Positions 11,871-61,949 of a DNA stretch of 64,000 nt are shown here, piece by piece. The notes below the pieces were generated by a model, which saw only the letters and a list, made by a program, of their open reading frames with translations, had not been told where the DNA came from and made no database searches. This DNA is from Girardia tigrina (Eukaryota). Position 1 is the stretch's first letter. Every line of letters begins with the position of its first letter. A program made the translations under genes and the position numbers. Location: positions 1 through 64,000 of the forward strand of contig MQRK01214676.1 in assembly GCA_001938485.1 (NCBI GenBank), given 5' to 3'.

Positions 11871-12230
11871 TTTTACCACGTTTTTCTTAGCTTGGTTTCT
11901 TGTCTGTCTGTCTGTCTGGAACAAATCTTGGAATTGATTTTTCGACCACTTTCAGTCATCCAATTGAGCTGAATTTTTTTATACAGGCTTGCTTCCAATG
12001 ACAATACAATATTTTAAAACATTTACTTTACGGTTGTACGGAAAAAAAATAATAAATTGAACAAATATTGTGAAAATCAAGTGATAATTAAGTGTAGAAG
12101 TATTAAAATTAGGTTTAAAAAGTATTTTGAAATAAAACTTGCTTTTATTAAAATAAAACTTTGTTATTTTGGTTTTATTATCATTTCCGTTATTCGAAAT
12201 CAATCGAAAGATTTGAATTCCTAAATGATA
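11871..12230 (+). mobile_element. Non-autonomous Helentron/DINE-1-like element, 3'-truncated copy
   Basis: Starts TTTTACCACGTTTT, then a (GTCT)n microsatellite and atccaattgagctgaattttt; closely matches 35643-36030. Confidence 0.75.
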
Positions 12231-12732
12231 ATTTTAGAGATATAGTATGGATGAGGAAGCCGGAAGATAAAGAGATGTAAGTGGCTAAGATTCATTTGCT
12301 TCTACAATCGAATTTATCGGAATGTTTTAATTTGAGGTTTCTTGGAATGAAAATATTTGCTTAATCATTTTCTTTTGATAATGTCTTTGATCCAGAATTT
12401 GGATATACTCCCGTTTCAGTTTGAGGATAGACGGAGGCTGGTATTATTTTCAGTATATCTTTGATATGAATTCGTTGAGAATTTATTTAATGGATCTCAT
12501 CAGGCAGAAGTTCGAGAAAATTTGAGTCGTCACTTTTGTAACGTCAAAAAGAAAATTTAGGAATTTTGAGAGAATTATTTTAATTAGAATGAGTAAAAAT
12601 AAAACAATTTTCTTAGTAAGTGGAACTATGTCCAACGAATTATGTATGGATAATCAGTGAAAATGAACAGTGATGAGGCGATAGATCATCGCTGTTGATC
12701 ATTGACTGATCTTTCACTATTCCGAATATTAC

Positions 12733-14939
12733 CTGATTGGCAGCATCAATTTTGCAGTGTTTAGAAAGCAGAAGTTTCACAATTGATTCGTTGCCCTCCA
12801 TACAAGCCAAATGAATTGGTCTATTCTTAAACTGAAATATTTCAATGAATAATTCACACAACATTCGATCATTTACGTCATCCTCGGCTTCCAAATTGCA
12901 ATTGTTACTGACTAACAATTCGGCAATCTCTGGTTGATTATAGACGCACGCATAATGTAATGGAGTTCTTTTATCCTGAATAAACAACAAATAATGTTCC
13001 ATGTTTCATTACAATAATACCTCATTTGTTGCTTCAAGGTCGCAGTTGTGAGAAATTAGTAACTTTGCTATTTCTAAATAGCCATTCTTGCAAACAACAT
13101 GGATTGGTCTCTCGAGATTCTAGTGTCTTTTATTAACAAATTGAAGATTGTTTTACTTTTACTTGCCTTATTTTCAGATTCGATATTGCAAGATCTTCCA
13201 AGAAGCATTTTGACAATCTTGCAAGATTCCTTCTGTTGACGTTTACGGCGCTATAATAAATAAATATTTATTTTATTTCTTTAAATAGAAAATTACAAGA
13301 GCATCACGATCTCTTTCATTCATGAATAAGTTATTCAATATATCACGAATTGAAATTCGACCTTCTTTTTTACAAGCCAAATGTAATGGAGTATCTAAAT
13401 CTTATTAATATTCAAATTTTATTTCAAAATAATAATAATATAAAAATTACTCCATTTTTGGCCTCAAGGTCACAATGTTTGGATAATAAATATTCGAGAG
13501 CATTCACGTGACCTTCTTTTATTAATATATGTATCGCTCTATCTTTATTCTAATGAAAATTTTTGATAACATTTGTTTGATCTAAATAACAAACCTGATC
13601 TTCGATTTCCACATTGCAATTGTTTTCTATGAGTATTCTCATTATATCGATATGTCCCCCCAAACATGCCTGATGCAATGGAGTTCGCTTATTCTATTAT
13701 TCGTGTAAAACAATATTTTAAATTATTATTATTATTTTACATTGTTTTGAATATCGATGAAAGACGTTCGAGCAACTATTTCTTTTACAAACTTCACAAT
13801 ACCATTTCTACAAGCCAAATGGAATGGAGTATCTAAATTCTAGTAATATTCAAATTTTATTTCAAAATAATAATATAAAAATTACTCCATTTTTGGCCTC
13901 AAGGTCACATTGTTTGGATAATAAATATTCGAGAGCTTCCACACGACTCCATTTTATTATTATATGTATCGCTCTATCTTTATTCTAATGAAGATTGTTG
14001 ATAACATTTGTTTGATCTAAATAACAAACCTCATCTTCGATTTCCACATTGCAATTGTTTTCTATGAGTATTTCCATTATATCGATATATCCCCCCTGAC
14101 AAGCCTGATGGAATGGTGTTCGTTTATTCTATTATTCGTGTAAAACAATATTTTAAAAAATTATTATTATTTTACATTGTTTTGAATATCGATGAAAGAC
14201 GTTCGAGCAACTATTTCTTTTACAATATCCACATAACCCATTTTACAAGCATAATGTAATAGAGTATCTTTATTCTTAAAACCAATTTTAATTGTTTTAA
14301 TCATATTGTTTGTTCACAGTTATGAATCAATAAATTACATTATTTATTTCGACATTACAGTTTCTGGATAACAGTAATCTTAATATGTTTTCGTTGTCTT
14401 CTAAAAGTGCTAAACCAAGGATTATTTCTCCACACTAAAATTGTCAATGTTCTTTTGACAAAAGAATTAAAAGTACAAACATTAGTTAGATCTTCACAAT
14501 CGCAATTGTTTTTAAGAAGTATTTCAACAATTGACAAATGACAATGAATAGATGCCCAATGCAATGGAGTTTCGCCTTCCTAAAAATCTTTAAATTTTTT
14601 TTAATAAATTTACATCAATTACTTTATTTTTGACGTCGATGTTACACTTTTTATCGATCAGTACTTCAAGCATCTTGACATCTCCGTTCTGACACGCCAG
14701 ATGGATCAATGTATTTTCCTCCTGCATTTCGGCACTATTTTATACGTTGATCATTATATATAAAGTTACAGAATCAGTAAATTCAAAATCGAATTCGTCA
14801 TTCGATAAAATATTCGCGATCACTTCGTCGTCCAACGGTTTTTTGATTCTCTCCATCTTTAAGAAGGATCAATAAATACACTCAAATACAATTTCGATCA
14901 AACCATTTCGAAAATGTCTCTGCTCGAATATTTCAACAT
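12733..14939 (-). CDS. Multi-exon ankyrin-repeat protein (~13 repeats, mostly one 99-nt phase-0 exon per repeat)
   Basis: MLKYSSRDIFEM/MERIKKP.../EENTLIHLACQNGD.../EGETPLHWAS.../CGEIILGLAL.../NKDTLLHYACKMG.../NKRTPFHQAC.../NKDRAIH.../NLDTPFHLAC.../NKRTPLHQAC.../NKDRAIH.../DLDTPLHLAC.../RRKRQ.../NLERPIH.../DKRTPLHYAC.../FKNRPIHLAC...AANQ. Introns are ~43-65 nt, one is GC-AG, and the acceptor at 13401 is defective. The last exon ends at a GT donor, not a stop. Confidence 0.9.
13370..14225 (-). repeat. Tandem duplication (period ~435 bp) of three ankyrin exons plus introns
   Basis: cattgttttgaatatcgatgaaagacgttcgagcaactatttcttttaca occurs at 13740 and 14175, and the flanking introns are near-identical. 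Confidence 0.95.
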
Positions 14940-15720
14940 TTCGTTATTTCGTAAATTATTATTCTTAACATAAAATTATAAATTTATTATCAAATTTAAA
15001 ATCTTACATTCATTTTGTTTAAAAAAATGTATAAATTTGATTTTATTAAAACGAATTTGTTATTTTTAAGAATATTTATGTTATTTTTTATTTAAACAAA
15101 ATTATTAAATAAACATTTTCAAATTTTTACAAAAAAATATTGGAACAGATCAACGATAAGGATCAAAACAAAATGGTATTTTGATCGGTCTGACAGAAAG
15201 ATGGAGCGTGAAGGTTGTAGAGAGGTCGCTGGAAAAATCTCTGAGTCGTCTTCAGAAAATAATAAATCATTTTAATTTTCAAATATATTTTAATTCGAAT
15301 CGAATTTTCTTTTTTGTCTTAAATAACAAAAACAAATTCAATTTTTATTTTTTATCATAAAAATTCTTTTTCTATTTACTTTGTGAATTATTTCTTGTAA
15401 ACAATGAGAAGATAAAAGAGGCTTCAGCGAGACGCGCTTTGCATGATTGTTATTTTTTTAAATATGAAACGCCATTTTTCAAAATTTATTGTACTTAATT
15501 TCAGCATTTTCCGTGTGATATGCCGATTAAATTAACATTAATTTTTGGATAAAATACATTATTGTCTTGTGTGCTTGTTTTTTTTAATTTTTGTGTTGTA
15601 TGTTCGTGTGTGTTTTGTAATTATGAGGGGTTAATTTAAATTAGCATCTCGACAGAATAATTTATTATTTTTTTTAATTTTAAAGGTAAAATATTTTAAT
15701 TTTAATGTGCTTATTATATA

Positions 15721-16315: not shown

Positions 16316-18270
16316 TTTCCGCAGCCGGAGACATCGTCGGTCAACTCTCTCGAGACAGTCGCGCGTCGGCCTTAATCACCCACAGATCCTCGGAGCGAGG
16401 AGTCGGAATCCGACCGAGCGGACCGGTGTGAGAGCGGTGAACGACGATTGCGACGTGGGACGACGCCAGATGTGACAATCCGTGCTGAAGGTTCTGGTCC
16501 ACGAGAAACATAACGTTCGAAAAAGTCATATTGAGCAAAGTTTTATTCATATCAACGAAAGTTTTATTTACATCGACATCGAAATCATAATATTTTCATC
16601 ATTTTATTACAAAAGTGAAGCGATGAAACAACGAAATTTGTTGTATAAATTTTTTTAAAGTTATTGTTTTTTATTTCATTTACTTCATTTTTTTGGTTGT
16701 TTTTGAGGATCACTACAAGAACCCCAGCCGAAGAATGCTGAGCATGTTGGAAGTATGTCAGCTCGATTGAGATTAGATCCTTGAAGAGCTTGGGGTGAGA
16801 GAATCGGATGATTGCGGGGAAGAGAGGCTGATGACCTGCAAGGGATGAATTGTTCATTGAAACGCATTTTTGGGTGGTGTAGTTTGTTGTTTGTTGATGT
16901 GTGGTTTGCTTGGCGTGCATGTAATGATGTTGTCTTGTAAGTATGTGTTGTTTCTTGTCGTGTGATTTTTTTGACATGCATGTGTTGATGTTTGTTGTTT
17001 CATATGTTACTGCTATATTGTTTGACGTGATTGGTGTTATATGGTCACGGAAACGAGCTGGGCGTATGATGTTCCTCTGTAATGGAGTCCTGGCGGGGTT
17101 GGAAATATGTGGACTGGTTGCCGTTGCAGCTTTTTTGGGGTTGAATGGTGGTTGAGGAATCTGATCGTCGGGGTTGGTGTTGTCTTGCTGAGTCGCGATT
17201 CTTTATTCTGGAACGTCTTCCAATTGAAGTCAAGGCTTGAGATTGCAGATGTTTACAGTGATCGCCTTGCTGTTAACCAAGATTTTGGCCGTGTTGTTGT
17301 CTAGGGCGATGTTCAGGAGTTTATATGGCCCGGTTTAAGGTCTTCCAGTGAGTCTGTGGTCTCTTTTTGAAGCCAGACGAATTTGGCGGTGGTTTTGGAA
17401 TGAAGATATATTGTCCTCCGGACTTAGGTGGCATTCTGTTGGCTTGCAGGAAGTGTTCACACGCCGCCGTTAACATCTCCTCATCACTTGATGCTTCATT
17501 GAAGACGAGTTCGTTTTTTAGCGAGGTGTTGGTCCCGAAAAGCATTTAGGCAGGAGATGTTCCATATCGACTGTGGGGAATGTTCCGCCAGGCTAGTAGG
17601 ATAGTTGGCAGATGCTTTGCCCAGTCATGCTTCTGGCCTCTTTGGGATGCCGAAGCGTGAAATCCAATATCTGACGAGGATTTCGATGATGGTCTCGGCA
17701 GACATTAACCTAATCGGGAAAGTCTCTGGACATCTTGTGTTCCTGTCAAGAATTCTGAGGATGTACTGGTAGCCTGAGAGATTGGAAGAGGCCCGATGAC
17801 GTCCATATGAACCGTATCGAAACGGCTTCCAGTGGGGAAAGTCAAGGTGGATGGTCTGGTGTATTTGGTAACTTTGTCCTTCTGACACTGGAAACACGTA
17901 CGACACCAAAGGGAAATATCTTTGCGCATGAAGGGCCAGATTACCTTGTTTCTGATTAGTTGATAGGTGGCCTTCGCACCTGGATGTGATGAGTTGTGCA
18001 CTCCTCGAAAGGCTTGAGTCTGCAAATCCTGGCCGAGTACGGGTCTGAGACATCCGGGTTGCGACGTATCATAGTAAACGTTCCCCCTTAGTCGGTGGAT
18101 TCGTAAAATGACTGAGATCCTTCATAGACGGTGGAACGGTTCTAAACTTCAGTGGTGAACAACGGTCCGAAGTCAAGGCTCATTACATCAGCCCTGAAGA
18201 GGCAATCCGCTACCAAATTATCGGCTCCTTTGATATGTTTGACCTGAATGTTAAACTGAGATAGGTAACC
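16316..18270 (-). mobile_element. Ty3/Gypsy remnant (RNase H end, integrase, probable LTR)
   Basis: HIKGADNLVADCL; HNSSHPGAKAT...WPFMRKDISLWCRTCFQCQ (HHCC); FDTVHMDVIGPLP; WISRFGIP; internal deletion and stops. Confidence 0.9.
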
Positions 18271-31239: not shown

Positions 31240-32247
31240 ATGAACCAGCGGTTAAATTTTACCACGAATTTAACGAAATCGAAATACAAATTAGTTTCAT
31301 CGGTTTCCAATGAGAAAATTGTTTCCACGTCTCATCCGATGGTTTTCTGTTCGAAACTACCGTTGCATTGGAGGTCGAACAAGTCTCTGCCTTCTCTGTT
31401 TCAGGTGATTTTGTGTCAAAATAAAAACCTGGCTTTACCGTCGTTGGACGGTTATCGGGTGTGGTTGTCGGCTGGTAACCAGTCGGTCAATAATGCGATT
31501 TTACGCAACAATGAATCGAAGCTGATCAACGGCGAGGCAAGATTTAATGATCTGAGATTCATCAGCCGAAGTGGAAGAGGTTGGATTTTTTATAAATATT
31601 CATATGATAATTATATTATTTAGGGAAGTATTTTGATGTTTATATACATATCGAATGTAATCCGAAAATTGTCGCCGTATACTCGAACGCCATTAAAGTA
31701 ACAGTTGACGGACCGAGAGAACCGAGAAATAAACACAGTAATATTTTTTTTATATTTTACTATTATAAATAAAACTTATTTTAATTAAGAAGGTCTTTAT
31801 TTAACAAAAGAATCATTAAAAATTCCCAATTTTGTAAGAAGACAAGAATCAGAATCTGGAATTTGTTTCAATCCCCTTCCAGAAATTGAAGACCCTTCAA
31901 AACCGTGGAAATTACCAAAATTAGATCAAAATAATTATTCCGGTAATATAACAATTTTTGATTTTTTTCTTTTTATTTAATATTTAGAACTCAATTTCTG
32001 TGACAGTAAATTAATCCCTCTGATGTCCCCACCAATTTTGAACCCTTTTCTTCAACCTTCCCTATCAAACTGGCACGCCACATTACCCCTTCAGAAACCC
32101 GACAACATTTCCATCTTACAGTTTATGATGATGGCCACCAATTTCCGGATGAATATTCCGTATCTGGAAATGAACAGCTCAAACCAAAATTATCCCATCA
32201 AAGAAAGTGATAATATCCACAAACCGAAGATCTGGAGACCCTTCTGA
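31240..32247 (+). CDS. runx: Runt-domain transcription factor; exons 31240-31579, 31624-31737, 31790-31942, 31988-32247; 288 aa
   Basis: FCSKLPLHWRSNKSLP...AGN...LRNN...ARFNDLRFISRSGRG^KYF...AIKVTVDGPREPR, C-terminal IWRPF*. Three GT-AG phase-1 introns give an 867-nt open frame, and the first intron is at the conserved RSGRG position. Confidence 0.97.
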
Positions 32248-35642: not shown

Positions 35643-36176
35643 TTTTACCACGTTTTTATTAGCTTGCTTTCTTGTCTGTTTGTCTGTCTGGAACAAATCT
35701 TGCGATTGATTTTTCGACCACTTTCAGTCATCCAATTGAGCCGAATTTTTTTATACAGGCTTACTTCCGATGACAATACAATATTTTAAAACATTTACGG
35801 CTCTACATAAACCGTATATGCTATAATTAAATAGCTTATGTCTTATACGGGAAAATAATCCGTGTTAATGATGTACGGAAAAAATTAATAAATTGAACAA
35901 ATATTGTGAAAATCAAGTGGTAATTAAGTGTAGAAGTATTAAAATTAGGTTTAAAAAGTTTTATTTTGGTTTTATTATCATTTCTGTTATTCAAAATCAA
36001 TCGAACGATTTGAATTCCTATATGATAACTAAAAATAGTTAAATAATATTATTAATAAAAAAAATTTTTTTATAAAAACAACCACGTTTTTCAAGCATTA
36101 CCAATAAAAAGAGGAAAATAATTTTTTTTCTAGACATGTGAGAAATTTTATACCTAACCAAAAACGTGGGGCATAG
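35643..36176 (+). mobile_element. Non-autonomous Helentron/DINE-1-like element, near-complete copy
   Basis: 5' TTTTACCACGTTTT plus GTCT repeats; 3' subterminal inverted AAAACGTGG at ~36162; matches 11871-12230. Confidence 0.75.
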
Positions 36177-36373
36177 NNNNNNNNNNNNNNNNNNNNNNNN
36201 NNNNNNNNNNNNNNNNNNNNNNNNNNTTCAGAAATCCGCCCCACGTTTTTGGTTAGGTATAAAATTTCTCACATGTCTAGAAAAAAAATTATTTTCCTCT
36301 TTTTAGTGCATTGGTAATGCTTGAAAAACGTGGTTGTTTTTATAAGAAATTTTTTTTATTAATAATATTATTT
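36042..36373. repeat. ~130-bp inverted repeat flanking the N gap at 36177-36226
   Basis: 36042-36172 is the reverse complement of 36238-36373 apart from a 5-nt indel and a few substitutions. Confidence 0.85.
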
Positions 36374-37632: not shown

Positions 37633-38700
37633 CAGGGACACGACATTTCCGCAGTAAATTTTAGTGGAATCAACGTCACATTTTCACGGAATCCGCGGTA
37701 AATTTTTGCATTTCCCGCGGTTATACTTTATATATTCTGTTTATTTCATTTTGGTGCATAAATACGCACTGTGCATGGATTTATGTTATCTATATAGTTA
37801 TTTTCATCCATATTGTTAAGTAACTTAAATAATTTTTTATCTATGACTATAAACATTCACACAATACAATAAAAAAATCTCATATGACTAATATAGTTAT
37901 ATATGTTTTCCATAAAAAGGCATAATTTACTACTAAAACTTTATTTAAATACATTCGCAAAAGACCTGCGGTATTTTTCGGAGTCAATCGCTGTCTGAGA
38001 GAGGTAAACACTTGGTTGAAAGTACTGAATGACCGTTCCACATCACCACTGTGGACATTGAACTGTAGAAGTAAAACATCATGCGCAAAAAAATTGGGAA
38101 CATGATTTTGAACAGCTTTCCAAAACTGTAAGGGATTGGTAAAACTTGTGCTGATATCTTGAACTAATCGAAGGTAAACTATCCACTCTTCATCGCAAGT
38201 GTCATGAAGTCTAAAATCTGCCTTCAATACTGTGCAGGAGGAAACTTCGACCGCTGGTAACTGAGAATGCACACAGTCTTTAAGAAACGAATGCATGACT
38301 GCTTTTCTTCCTGCATATACCCTTTCAATTTCAGTGCTTCCGCAGAAGCGACAGAAGCGCAATTTTCGTCAATAGCTGAAGAAGAAAGGTGGATAAGCCA
38401 AGAAGTCAAGTCTTGCATTAGGTTATAAACCTCGTGGACTTGAGGCTTTCGTGATTTGCACACATTCAGTGCAGCGATCAAGCGGGGACAGTTGGAAGCG
38501 AAGAAAGTGAAATGATCACTTAGACTGCTTGATGAAAGAAGATACGATACCTCCAACAAAGCTGCGCTGTCTCCTTCTTCCTCACGCTCCTTGCAAATGA
38601 AGGCAGAATAATACGGAATGAAGGATATGTGGTAAAGGACTGCTTCAAACCACGTGTTCCATCGTGTTAAAACATGTTCTGGAGGAAGAGAATGTAATTA
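37633..38700 (-). mobile_element. hAT transposon 3' half
   Basis: PPEHVLTRWNTWFEAV; dimerisation domain FW...P...SGDVERSFSTFNQVFTSLRQRLTPKN; frameshift near 38290; terminus CAGGGACACG with CCGCGG subterminal motifs. Confidence 0.9.
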
Positions 38701-39526: not shown

Positions 39527-39682
39527 GGGGTAACGCATTAATTTCCCCAGTGAATTGATTTTATTAATGAATTGAATTTTTTAATAGTTATAGGGTTAGG
39601 GTTACGGTTTAGGGTTAAGGTTAAGGTTAGAGGTTAGGGTTAGTGGAAATTAATTCACTGGTGTAATTAATGCGGTAACTCT
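39527..39682. mobile_element. Short TIR element containing degenerate TTAGGG repeats
   Basis: TIRs ggtaacgcattaatttccccagtgaatt / aattcactggtgtaattaatgcggtaac; internal agggttagggttacggtttagggttaaggttaaggttagaggttagggttag. Confidence 0.75.
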
Positions 39683-40060
39683 GCATTGTTGTATTCTTGT
39701 GAAAAGTGAATTTAATTTATTAAATATTTTTTCATTCTTGTTGTCTAAAGTTATAAATAAATTAATATCGATTTCTCTAGTAAAATAGATATTTAAACAG
39801 TGTTCGTTTAACAGTACTCTCAACAAGTGCCAATAAATACCAATGGAATACAGTATTTTTTATCTCTTAATGACTTAGAAGTAAAATTTACAGGATTCAC
39901 AAAAAAACATTAACCATTTGAACTCTTAATTTTTTAATTACCTATTACTAACTCCTTAATTAATTTACGAAAGGGGTGTAAAAAGTTGTTTTTGTATCAT
40001 TGTTGCAATGGAGAAAATGATTAATCGTATTTGTTAATCATTTATTTGTTAATCGTATTT

Positions 40061-42280
40061 GGACCCTCTGATGGCTGTGCTGAGCACACCTTCTTTTTGC
40101 GTGCTGTTATAGATCACTATGTAAACGAGAAAAATTCTGAGCTTCATCTTGCCTTTATGGATATTGCTGCCGCCTTTGACACAATTTCGGTTGAATATAT
40201 CTTGTTTGCTCTTGAAAGGATGGGTCTTCTTCCTGAGTCAGTTGGGCTGATTAGGGAATTGTATCGTGATTGCCATACAAGGATTATTTGTGAAGGTCAA
40301 GCAACTGACCGGTTACCAGTCACTGTTGGTGTTAGACAGGGGTGCCCCTTGTCCATGCTCCTGTTTAAAATAGGTATTGACCCAATCCTCAATAAACTTG
40401 ACTCAATCCGGTGTTGTACCCCCGTCACGATTGGAGCCTCCACCATTTCTTGTATGGCATACGCTGATGACCTGGTTTTATTTGGAGTTTCGGAATACGA
40501 GATTAACACTCTTGTGACCTGTGCTTCCAAATATGTTAGGGCCGTTGGTATGGCATTTAGGCAATCGAAATGTGCGTATTTGGATTTCCCATACGACAAG
40601 GATAACATGCTTCTTCTTGATCATCAGATTGTTCCTCATCTGAAAGCCGATGAAGGGTATGTCTATTTGGGAAGTTTTATTTTTCGTCTGCTTCATCACA
40701 CTCATGAACAAGTGATTGCAGCTGTTGTTGCTGATCTTGCCCTTCTGAAAAATTCTGCTCTTTCGCCTTCTCAGAAACTACATGCCTATCAGACCTTTGT
40801 CCATCCGAAAATGGTCTTTTACTTTCGAAACACTTATATTCCCTTTCCTGACATTACAGCCCGGAAAACTGGTTGGGAAATTGTGGTTCGAAAGGAACAT
40901 AAGGAGTTTTTGAACCTTCCTCTGCGTGCTTCCAACTCATATATTTACACCAGTAAAGAACATGGTGGTGTTGGTCTTACTTGTGTCTTTGATGAATNNN
41001 NNNNNNNNNNNNNNNNNNNNNGCTTCTACCTTCTCAATTCTTCTGACAGTTTTGTGAAGGACGCTGTGTGGACTACTTTGGAGCACGCCTCCCGCAACCA
41101 ACAAAGACATGACATCTTTAAATGGATTAATGAAGGTTATCGTAACTATGTTCGTGATCATTGGTGGAACAAAATTCAGCATGCCATCTTCTCTTTGAAG
41201 AGTCTCGGAATTACTATCCGCTTTGGTGATGACTTTCCTTCCACCTGCATTACCTTCCGACTCGACAATGCTGATTACCACATATCCTCCACCATTCGAT
41301 CAAATGAGAAAGATAAGGTGTCCGTATTTCTGAGAAAATGTCTGTCTCTTCACGATCTTTTCTCCTGGACGGGACAAAAGAGTGCGGGGCGCTCGGCGTC
41401 TGCCCTATCTCTTAGCTCTTTCACGACTTCTGTTGTTTACAACAGTCATCTCCCTGCCTCTGAATGGCAATTTATTCACCTAGGTCGTTCCTATAACCTT
41501 CCAATTAGCTGCCGGTTTGGGAAATCTGACCTTTGAAGGAGATGTCAAGAGAATGCTGAGACTCTCATGCATGTACTTTGTTGCTGTCGGCCCTTCATGT
41601 CTTTTACGAATGCCCGTCATAACTCTGTTGTTGACATTTTGGCTTCTGAAATCAGGGAACACTGCAATGCCGAACTTGATGTAAATCATCAGTGTCGATT
41701 CGTGCACTCTGCACTCCGAGTCGACTTGCAGGTCTACTTCCCTGAGAAAAAAGAGAATCGTTCTGATTGATATTAAGTGTCCTTTTGACGACCTGAAAAA
41801 TCTAAAAAGGGCTAATAAGGATAATTTAGATCATTACCGACCTCTAAAAGAAGCCATTAAGGCTAAATACAGCGATCATAGGGTTTCATTATTACATTTA
41901 TTGTAGGAGCTCTGGGTACCTGGATCCCGGACAACATTAAAGCTCTTCGTGCAATCTTCCTCCCTCACAGAAAAAAGGACATTGCTTACGCAACCATCAG
42001 AAGCAACATCCGATGGAGTACGCGCCAATGGACCGCGTTCGATGAAGGAAAAGATTACTGCAACCTGTCCAGATTCAGTGATCCTGCACACAATCCAAGA
42101 GCCCCGACAATTGAAGGTGCAATCTTTGAAGATGAATCCGATGAAGTAGCTGTCGCTGACAGCTTCCAGCACCAACGAAGTGGCGAGCGATGATGCTGAA
42201 GCAAAATGAATGCCGATCCAAATCAGATTAAGTCCCGAAAGGGCAACTCAAAAAAAAACTTTTGTTTTGTAATAAATTTT
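40061..42280 (+). mobile_element. 5'-truncated RLE non-LTR retrotransposon, NeSL/Utopia-like
   Basis: GCAEH, DIAAAFD, GVRQGCPLS, AYADD, YVYLG, LPLRAS...GGVGL; decayed CCHC (RRC...ETLMHVLCCC); RHNSVV; RVDL...DIKCPFD; VGALGTW; SNIRWS. The frame ends ~42193, followed by a hairpin, an A-run and AATAAA. Confidence 0.92.
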
Positions 42281-54461: not shown

Positions 54462-59802
<5,341 letters not shown>

Positions 59803-61949
59803 CTGTTGAAAAAAAACTTGAAATGTTGTCATAATAAAGAATTTTTCCCCATATACTTTTATTTAAATTTTGACATAAAATACTCACGGAAATCATTAAA
59901 AAGTGGCCCATTTAAAATAACTTTTGGTGACATTAAGAAAATATCGTTATTTATTTTTTATAAGTTTCCTTATTTTTAGGACATATTTCCCAATTTTAAA
60001 AGCCTTTGTTCTGCACATAAAATAGGAGAAGGCCAAATTCTTATTAATCATTTGTCCCATCGCGAAAGCCGTTACCCTATTACAATAAGCGAACACGACA
60101 TTGTCCCAAACAAGGATTGAATGATACACAATAAAATGTGTCAATGTTTCAGATAATTTGACCTTTAGCAATCAACGCACAAACCCAGCAAGCAAGATCA
60201 ATCGATAGAAGACGATTGTTGTGGATCGCGGTTTAAAAATTATAAAATAAATCTATATAAATTTATATTGTCGTTTTTTGTGTGACTTTATGTGAAAAAA
60301 GATTTTTTTAAGTCTGGAAATTTCCAGGAAATCTTTTGTCTAAATGTTATGTTGCTCAGCAAACTGCTGTTAAAAAAGAAAATAACGCGTTTAAAACTGA
60401 ATTTTCAAGTTGTGAATATTAATTGGGTACACGATCTAATTCTCACTAGAAAAGCCACAAAATCATCTTTGAGTCATCGCCAAGAAATTGTTCAAACATG
60501 ATTTAGAAAATTATTAATGCTCGTCATTTTGCCTCAGAATATCGCTAAAATGAATTTGAACTAGTATTCGATCAAATGGACTCGAATTCGCGAACACCGC
60601 TCGTTGATGAGTTGCGACAAATTAATTGGTCAAATCCTAATTTGTGTACATTGTGGTTTAATCGACTGTTCGAGGCGTAACTCTGTGATTTATGGGACTT
60701 TTCATACGATGAAAGAAGCAGACAAGTGTTTCGAATTCCGTTAATTCTTCGATTCTTTATATTTAGCGCACCATACTGGTATATCTGATATCGAGGTCGA
60801 TCATGCATTGTGTCTACTTTGTAAATGGAAAGGATAAATCATTCCTATATTGTATCATAAGAGATAACAGGTTATCATTCCGAATGATGTAATGTTCCAA
60901 AGACTTTTTATTCTTATTATGAACCATACACTTTCAACTAACACTAGAATGTATTATCTGACGAATATCGTAATGAAACTCGCAGAACAAATCCATCAAC
61001 AGTTGATTCAAGAGAAGGAGCTGGGAGCATATCTGATTAGAACATTGATAACGGTTAATTGGGCATGGTCAATACCATTGATCCTTAGAGGAACAAAAGA
61101 AAACTTGTGTAACCGCAATTCCATTTTAACAGTCAATAAATAATTTACAATAAATGAAGGATGTACACTTAAATATCATTAAAGTTGTACTACAATTTGT
61201 CAAGTTCAAATTTGGGAAACTATCCCACAAAAACCTATCCAATTCGTTATAAATGATCATAATTTAAAATCACATCATTTAAAGACATTTACGATAATTA
61301 TCGAAATTATTTCGAGTATTTTAAAAAAGCAAAGTGTATTTCAAACCGGAATTCATACATGAGACAACCATGTCAAATAAATCACCAGTCGAATGATCGT
61401 GAGGAAAAACGAAGCTGCATCCATTGTGGCTGCACAGGTAACCCAACAGAACCAGTCCCCAAAGAATACAGACGTGTGATCTAATTTGAAGTACTTTGAC
61501 CGCGCGTTCATCAACAAAAGTCAATTGATTTGACAATAATTACAGAATCCGGAGTGTGGACATAAATTCTTGTCATCATAGTTTTGTCCGTATGCTCGCG
61601 AAATCAGTTTCATATTCAAATCTAAGTGATAATGTTTGTAGATGCACATTCACATATATCAATGTAAATGGTACCTTTACCAATGCTATTTTAACGATAA
61701 ACGGTTCAAAACGTACAAAACGATCCACTTACAGTTCATGAAAAGTAAAGGAAAAATTTGTTTTTCTGGGTAACGCTCCTCAAAAGCATTCACCGAAAGA
61801 TCTTGCGAAGACTGCTGGAGAAAGAAAAGAAATTACGGAATAAAATTGGCTCATGTGGCTTTGTATGATGTGAGTGATGATTTTTGCATTGATATGTGAA
61901 TGGTTTGATATGTTCTAAGGTTTCTATTGATATGTCTAATAATCTTTTA

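Follow-up and report, generated by a model that had tools for sequence, protein, structure and literature searches.

Vertebrate ANK1-3 have introns at the repeat boundaries and 99-nt phase-0 repeat exons; each of these genes is conserved, occurs as a single copy and also encodes ZU5 and death domains. Changing repeat arrays are described for brown algae and fungi. The Ectocarpus ROCO-LRR and NB-ARC-TPR genes encode one repeat per equal-length phase-0 exon, form a multigene family with changing arrays and show positive selection on the repeat exons (Zambounis et al. 2012, PMC3341825, in the part of the paper available to us). The fungal NLR gene Pa_3_8560 of Podospora carries near-identical ankyrin repeats, whose number changes by recombination and which vary in the inner helix; according to the accessible sections of Dyrka et al. 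(2014, PMC4986451), positive selection acts on five positions of the concave face, and the protein has a NACHT domain. As a general rule, new repeat copies in proteins diverge fast, under relaxed purifying and some positive selection (Persi, Wolf and Koonin 2016, PMC5120217, available portion).

The planarian gene analyzed here, on the minus strand of a 64-kb window (the whole stretch of DNA studied), resembles the Ectocarpus genes, as far as the available text of PMC3341825 describes them, in its equal-length phase-0 repeat exons and in belonging to a multigene family with changing arrays. It differs in that the repeats are ankyrin rather than LRR or TPR, that the duplication breakpoints lie inside exons, and that the locus has neither a GTPase or NB-ARC match (16 frames) nor spare or antisense exons in the window; compared with the positive selection on the algal repeat exons, dN/dS between the planarian units is 1.0-1.3 over 99 codons, at low power. 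In contrast to Pa_3_8560, as portrayed in the accessible sections of PMC4986451, near identity is confined to one three-repeat block, the variable sites are not concentrated on the concave binding face (p 0.42 and 0.14), and no NACHT or NB-ARC domain was found beside the repeats, the predicted first exon comprising only 29 codons. From the pattern of PMC5120217, in its available portion, our case does not differ in principle, being very young and including introns. Because the gene is so far without signalling domain, spare exons, concave-face enrichment or a dN/dS above 1, we do not file it with the fungal ANK-NLRs or the Ectocarpus receptors. A likeness to immune-type repeat receptors had been proposed beforehand, but we found no immune link, and none of the 16 non-ankyrin open frames scanned in the window matched NACHT, NB-ARC, ROC, kinase or TIR domains.

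As read from the sequence, the gene contains 14 phase-0 ankyrin-type exons running from 14721 to 12733 (Table 1), one repeat per exon being predicted. Eleven of them are 99 nt long, all 14 are multiples of three, and the introns among them measure 43-64 nt. With the Pfam ankyrin cut-off of 21.1 bits, nine exons reach the cut-off for PF00023, three stay below it with E < 0.05, and two are without match. None of the 14 exons contains an in-frame stop or frameshift, and 12 of 13 introns have kept their ends; any decay must thus be young. The intron between E11 and F (13166-13120) is of the GC-AG type. Exons D and E11 together (13401-13167) make up one ankyrin repeat, whose helices are separated by an insert of roughly 30 residues that contains a 46-nt intron of its own. 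The predicted first exon belongs to no known family: it has no Pfam match, no match among 1.84 billion representatives and a weak Atlas score. A profile search of both strands of the 64-kb window revealed no convincing further ankyrin exons, spare or antisense, and lent no support to a decayed terminal exon that had been suggested by eye near 12580-12680.

Table 1. Predicted exons of the planarian ankyrin gene and features of its tandem duplication, in order of transcription
Feature	Position	Strand	Remarks
Predicted first coding exon	14770..14856	-	29 codons from ATG (start inferred), acidic; 48-nt GT-AG intron to E1
Exon E1, ankyrin repeat	14623..14721	-	99 nt, phase 0; PF00023 31.7 bits
Exon E2, ankyrin repeat	14481..14579	-	Pfam 34.2 bits; GH-turn glycine (codon 13) replaced
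Exon E3, degenerate ankyrin repeat	14339..14434	-	96 nt; no Pfam match; second half fits the gene's own profile
Exon A1, ankyrin repeat	14176..14274	-	Left duplication breakpoint near codon 12-13 (~14238); TPLH proline replaced
Two tandem units	13366..14238	-	435 and 438 nt; spanning A codon 13 through D codon 12
Exon B1, first copy of B	14030..14128	-	Pfam 30.1 bits
Exon C1, first copy of C	13886..13984	-	GH turn lost; Pfam 14.7 bits
Exon A2, inferred chimera	13741..13839	-	Codons 1-12 and upstream intron D-type; codons 13-33 A-type
Exon B2, second copy of B	13595..13693	-	Pfam 34.4 bits
Exon C2, second copy of C	13451..13549	-	GH turn kept; Pfam 19.5 bits
Broken splice acceptor before exon D	13402..13403	-	AA; the other 12 introns end AG
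Exon D	13297..13401	-	105 nt; first 12 ankyrin codons and insert start; right breakpoint near codon 12 (~13366); profile columns 2-37
Exon E11	13167..13250	-	84 nt; insert end and second half of D's repeat; profile columns 43-98
Exon F, ankyrin repeat	13021..13119	-	Pfam 27.2 bits
Exon G, ankyrin repeat	12877..12975	-	Pfam 34.4 bits
Exon H, last recognisable ankyrin repeat	12733..12831	-	Pfam 30.9 bits

A tandem repeat is reported by TRF at 13368-14276 (period 435, 2.1 copies, 90% matches, score 1518). When the two units are aligned, 435 nt contain 35 mismatches and one 3-nt gap, which corresponds to 92% identity. Intron pairs differ at 2 of 45 nt (B-C), 2 of 47 nt (A-B) and 2 of 46 nt plus a 3-nt gap (C-A/D). 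Exons C1 and C2 differ at codons 9, 12, 13, 14, 16 and 25, all by replacement and with multi-nucleotide changes (TGG/GAA, CGT/CAC, GAA/AAT), while B1 and B2 differ by five replacement and three silent codons, turning FHQACQGGY into LHQACLGGH. Exon pairs outside this near-identical three-repeat block compare at 39-61 of 99 nt. The original prediction had given the counts for the B-C intron pair, the B pair and the C pair exactly; it did not contain the third exon pair, the breakpoints within exons, the broken acceptor at 13403-13402 or the other eight ankyrin-type exons between 14721 and 12733. Its tandem unit of about 435 bp, with three exons and three introns, stands as a duplication of exons together with introns, as TRF and the alignment both find, but not as a cassette bounded by introns.

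The breakpoints decide this point. In the first 12 codons (36 nt), A2 is closer to D (4 nt differences) than to A1 (9 nt); over codons 13-33, 5 nt separate it from A1, and it does not resemble D. Its upstream intron likewise fits that of D and not the 64-nt intron preceding A1. Since both breakpoints thus lie inside exons near codon 12-13, the middle exon is chimeric, and the exon layout did not set the duplicated unit. The locus is a clear young example of ankyrin array growth in which a crossover within exons makes a hybrid repeat.

To place the locus among its relatives, we used public sequencing runs. Thirteen of 20 listed runs contain part of the stretch, the best of them 0.38 of its words, and contigs of four (X1, X2, X3 and X8) were compared with it at 80% likeness. 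X1 and X2 are guessed to be DNA; the assignment of X3 and X8 to RNA is no more than a guess, and both include intron-bearing contigs. None of the runs containing part of the stretch is recorded as RNA, which has no bearing on expression. Such contigs represent many related sequences rather than a copy number, alleles and paralogues not being separable among them, and summed depth was not used as copy number. Of the letter differences in this comparison, 40 of 593 were listed; for indels the listing covers 12 of 87 and for joints 15 of 36.

X1 yielded 410 contigs, 70, 100, 111 and 129 of which show 99% or more, 95-99%, 90-95% and less than 90% identity, respectively; for the 472 contigs of X2 the corresponding numbers are 67, 126, 131 and 148. 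Hence 340 of 410 and 405 of 472 contigs lie below 99%. X3 and X8 contributed 54 and six contigs, and a single variant letter is common to up to 11 contigs. Repeat joins vary as well: among the listed joints, some skip 139-141, 875 or 1173 nt and others go back, though many have short sides and at 80% likeness may reflect paralogous repeats. Membership in a multicopy family goes beyond what had been predicted for the gene, and this family is likely to evolve by birth and death with varied repeat joins. The D/E11 insert is common to relatives in the public runs; a joint at 13212-13371 in X1 and X2 suggests family members that lack it.

Several observations bear on the age of the duplication. The letters at 13671, 14132 and 14142 are common to both units, while most public-run contigs differ there; the duplication is therefore local and recent. 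One relative without the duplication was seen, a 1817-nt contig of X8 that crosses the gene with a single unit by a jump from 14002 to 13565, as the ancestor would. This contig covers 12616-14801 and retains all introns; X8 being a small run guessed as RNA, it may stem from an unspliced transcript or from DNA. In one X3 contig the 46-nt intron before E11 is skipped, and an X3 contig fits exon H exactly (12733-12831). Such exon-bounded contigs are a hint of splicing only, because an intron-less junction also occurs in the runs guessed as DNA: at a joint 13400-13886 in X1 and X2, a C exon is joined straight to an A/D-type exon start with the GT..AG ends skipped, possibly by precise intron loss or a retrocopy in the family. 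X1 and X2 share the same joints over 12300-15100, with an X2:X1 depth ratio that ranges from roughly 0.9 to 5.2; this hints weakly at a copy-number difference between the samples, contig depth being no proof of it. An 11-nt word that starts at codon 10 of exon C2 recurs from codon 11 of exon D, where some relatives differ from D, possibly by a short conversion between neighbouring repeats or by chance.

Diversifying selection on the units, as first proposed, is not borne out by the rates. For the B and C pairs dN/dS amounts to 0.56-0.74 under three transition weights, and for all 99 duplicated codons to 1.00-1.34 (p 0.35-0.62, at low power); no value is significantly above 1. Silent changes account for 3 of the 21 codons that differ (p 0.17-0.33 when set against neutrality), and divergence reaches 29 of 297 nt in exons against 6 of 138 nt in introns (p 0.059). 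Treated as a full pair, A1 and A2 show 14 replacement and no silent steps (p 0.005-0.022), but they were rejected as a true duplicate pair because over the first 12 codons the comparison is one of repeat A with repeat D.

Within the repeat, codons 11-17 hold 11 of 18 replacements (p 0.001 if codons are independent), at a density far above that of silent and intron changes, in a window picked after looking. With clumps kept together, the cluster has p 0.013-0.064 for three repeats and p 0.15-0.50 for B and C alone, the two pairs on which the claim of a positional cluster had been based, and the changes of the third repeat flank the crossover itself. Variable codons number 11 of 30 at positions 1-17 and 2 of 30 at positions 18-33 (p=0.010). 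Mismatches are strongly clumped, with 10 adjacent pairs among 35, a value matched by none of 20000 shuffles, and identical runs of 66-69 bases stand between the patches. The six silent steps, too, all fall in codons 1-17, and the first half is accordingly richer in every kind of change; with pS at 0.15-0.18 and pN at 0.16-0.17 there, patchy mutation or conversion is indicated no less than selection.

Of the proposed diversification around the binding helix, the concentration of replacements in the first half stands, these not being evenly spread over the repeat; an enrichment at the canonical binding positions does not. No enrichment was found at the positions of designed ankyrin binders, with 4 of 18 replacements at six positions (p 0.42) and 6 of 18 at seven (p 0.14), the seventh being one that we take to belong to the set. 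Beta-turn codons 1-3 and 31-33 hold 2 of 18. The six positions are those randomised in the designed ankyrin library of PMC4308713 (available part), where codons 13-14, changed in C1, form the framework GH turn. Among the relatives, the 40 listed differences, after exclusion of 10 non-coding and 8 exon-D differences, comprise 10 replacement and 3 silent codons in first halves against 2 and 5 in second halves (p 0.062), which suggests that helix 2 is constrained and helix 1 free or selected. Diversifying selection across the family is possible.

The gene is not single-copy, and the copy at hand carries a disabling lesion. With the acceptor of D reading AA, use of either of the two nearest AGs shifts the frame of D and runs into a stop, after 1 or 19 residues, and retention of the intron leads to a stop after 8 residues. 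All three simple routes end in stops, although skipping of exons could bypass them; to judge from the exon phases, skipping of D and E11 would leave a clean frame of 12 repeats. In X3 and X8, where one contig each covers the site, the D acceptor is intact at all of the depth; in X1 the intact form makes up 58.6 of a depth of 335.8, and in X2 341.4 of 600.2. The lesion amounts to a single base and may be an assembly error. Both C copies, with 14.7 and 19.5 bits, score under the 21.1-bit cut-off. At two framework positions, the proline of TPLH in A1 and the glycine of the turn in E2, the copy departs from most public-run contigs; letters differing from these contigs lie at 14261 in A1 and at 14541, 14543 and 14551 in E2.

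With a probability of roughly 55%, we consider the locus a recent internal duplication of three repeats in one copy of a multicopy planarian ankyrin family, a copy that is now relaxed or decaying. In an ancestor of the order A-B-C-D, repeat A would have mispaired with repeat D, and an unequal crossover at the turn after helix 1 would have given the in-frame array A-B-C-(D helix 1 + A helix 2)-B-C-D. Its copies would then have collected changes in short patches under little purging, the patches stemming perhaps from multi-base mutation or from short conversion by many paralogues. Unless D, or D and E11, is skipped, the broken acceptor would lead to a protein truncated after nine repeats or to RNA decay. 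Intact family members are predicted to be cytoplasmic, ankyrin-only binding scaffolds of about ten repeats. This explanation is favoured by the breakpoint scan, the single-unit X8 contig, the shared letters, dN/dS near 1, the clumped mismatches, the stops and the framework departures; against it speak the replacement cluster at codons 11-17, the first-half excess among relatives (p 0.062), the open exons and the smallness of the one-base lesion.

The 8% between the units could also be older than the duplication, if two paralogues or alleles were joined by one unequal crossover and the differences reflect variation already standing in the family. The 1-20% by which family members differ spans this value, and the single-unit X8 contig aligns with A1-B1 and then with C2-D; however, the three letters shared by both units and absent from most contigs, and the long identical runs separating the patches, render such an origin improbable. 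We likewise see little chance that the tandem arrangement or the broken acceptor is an artefact of near-identical copies collapsed in a draft genome. It is true that no listed contig spans the stretch, the best run holding 0.38 of its words, that over the gene body depth is lowest at 13710-13803 in both X1 and X2, and that the window has six N gaps. Yet the nearest N is more than 15 kb from the gene, the junction is in frame, and A and D, which differ at 9 of their first 36 nt and are unlike thereafter, would be a poor substrate for a false overlap.

Less improbable, if still doubtful in our judgement, is the reading of the family as a working repertoire of variable binders, in which crossovers would swap binding halves, repeat number would vary, and selection would diversify the end of helix 1; the present copy would then be a by-product or be expressed by skipping of D and E11. 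It draws on the many contigs below 99% identity, the joints that skip or go back, the cluster at codons 11-17 and the first-half excess, the common phase 0 of all exons, and the precedents of fungal ANK-NLRs (PMC4986451) and brown-algal repeat-per-exon receptors (PMC3341825), each as presented in the available part of the paper. Against it, no true duplicate pair has a dN/dS significantly above 1, designed-binder positions are not enriched and beta-turn codons are poor in replacements, the 16 frames gave no signalling-domain match and the window no spare or antisense ankyrin exons, and the joints, with their short sides, may come from paralogous repeats. Carried further, to an undescribed expanded ankyrin-only family of dugesiid planarians in which turn crossovers graft a binding helix onto another scaffold helix and change repeat number, phase-0 exons make it possible to splice out damaged repeats, and diversifying selection acts on the end of helix 1, the idea appears rather unlikely. 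If true, it would be an animal counterpart of the brown-algal and fungal repeat-receptor systems, without a signalling domain.

On the reading that we prefer, the duplicated copy is probably one in decay within a large and rapidly changing family, and at most a candidate for a variable-recognition system. The family, rather than this copy, is the more useful lead. Should it prove diversified and expressed, it would be a receptor candidate for planarian immunity or self-recognition in an animal amenable to RNAi.

The databases searched yielded generic ankyrins but no close protein. One protein search gave 39 matches at 24-38% identity, and the best 120 of 2400 matches of a second lie at 25-42%; best single-exon matches reach 39-61% among the fetched proteins. 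As the best protein matches overall have only 25-45% identity to the query, no orthology to genes of the ANK1-3 type is shown. Six JGI loci are distant ankyrins and were not used, and Atlas scores, under the recognition threshold and for exon D pointing to generic bacterial ankyrin clusters, were set aside. The literature searched, with most subscription papers outside its coverage, held no publication on this ankyrin family; a description is absent from the available parts of PMC8229355, PMC13034038, PMC6211748 and PMC7958881, and in the last, a review of planarian immunity, the word ankyrin does not occur in the text available.

Elsewhere in the window, a Runt-domain frame (31258-31599, plus strand) shares 77% identity with Dugesia japonica runt-1 and 71% with Schmidtea mediterranea runt-1, the other nine matches being at most 52%; the window thus probably stems from a dugesiid planarian or a near relative of these. 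The stretch 59590-59979 looks by eye like what we take to be an exon of an MRP-type ABC transporter, a 90-aa frame there being without Pfam match. Transposon remains are indicated by Pfam at 17708-18121 (minus strand, integrase zinc-binding), 37883-38368 (minus strand, hAT dimerisation) and 40025-40996 (plus strand, reverse transcriptase), and a short telomere-like hexamer run (39591-39643) lies about 400 nt from the reverse transcriptase frame. A dispersed repeat at 11871-12231, just downstream of the ankyrin gene, and 35643-36028 (86-96% identity) and a long inverted repeat around an N gap (36041-36373) are probably mobile elements.
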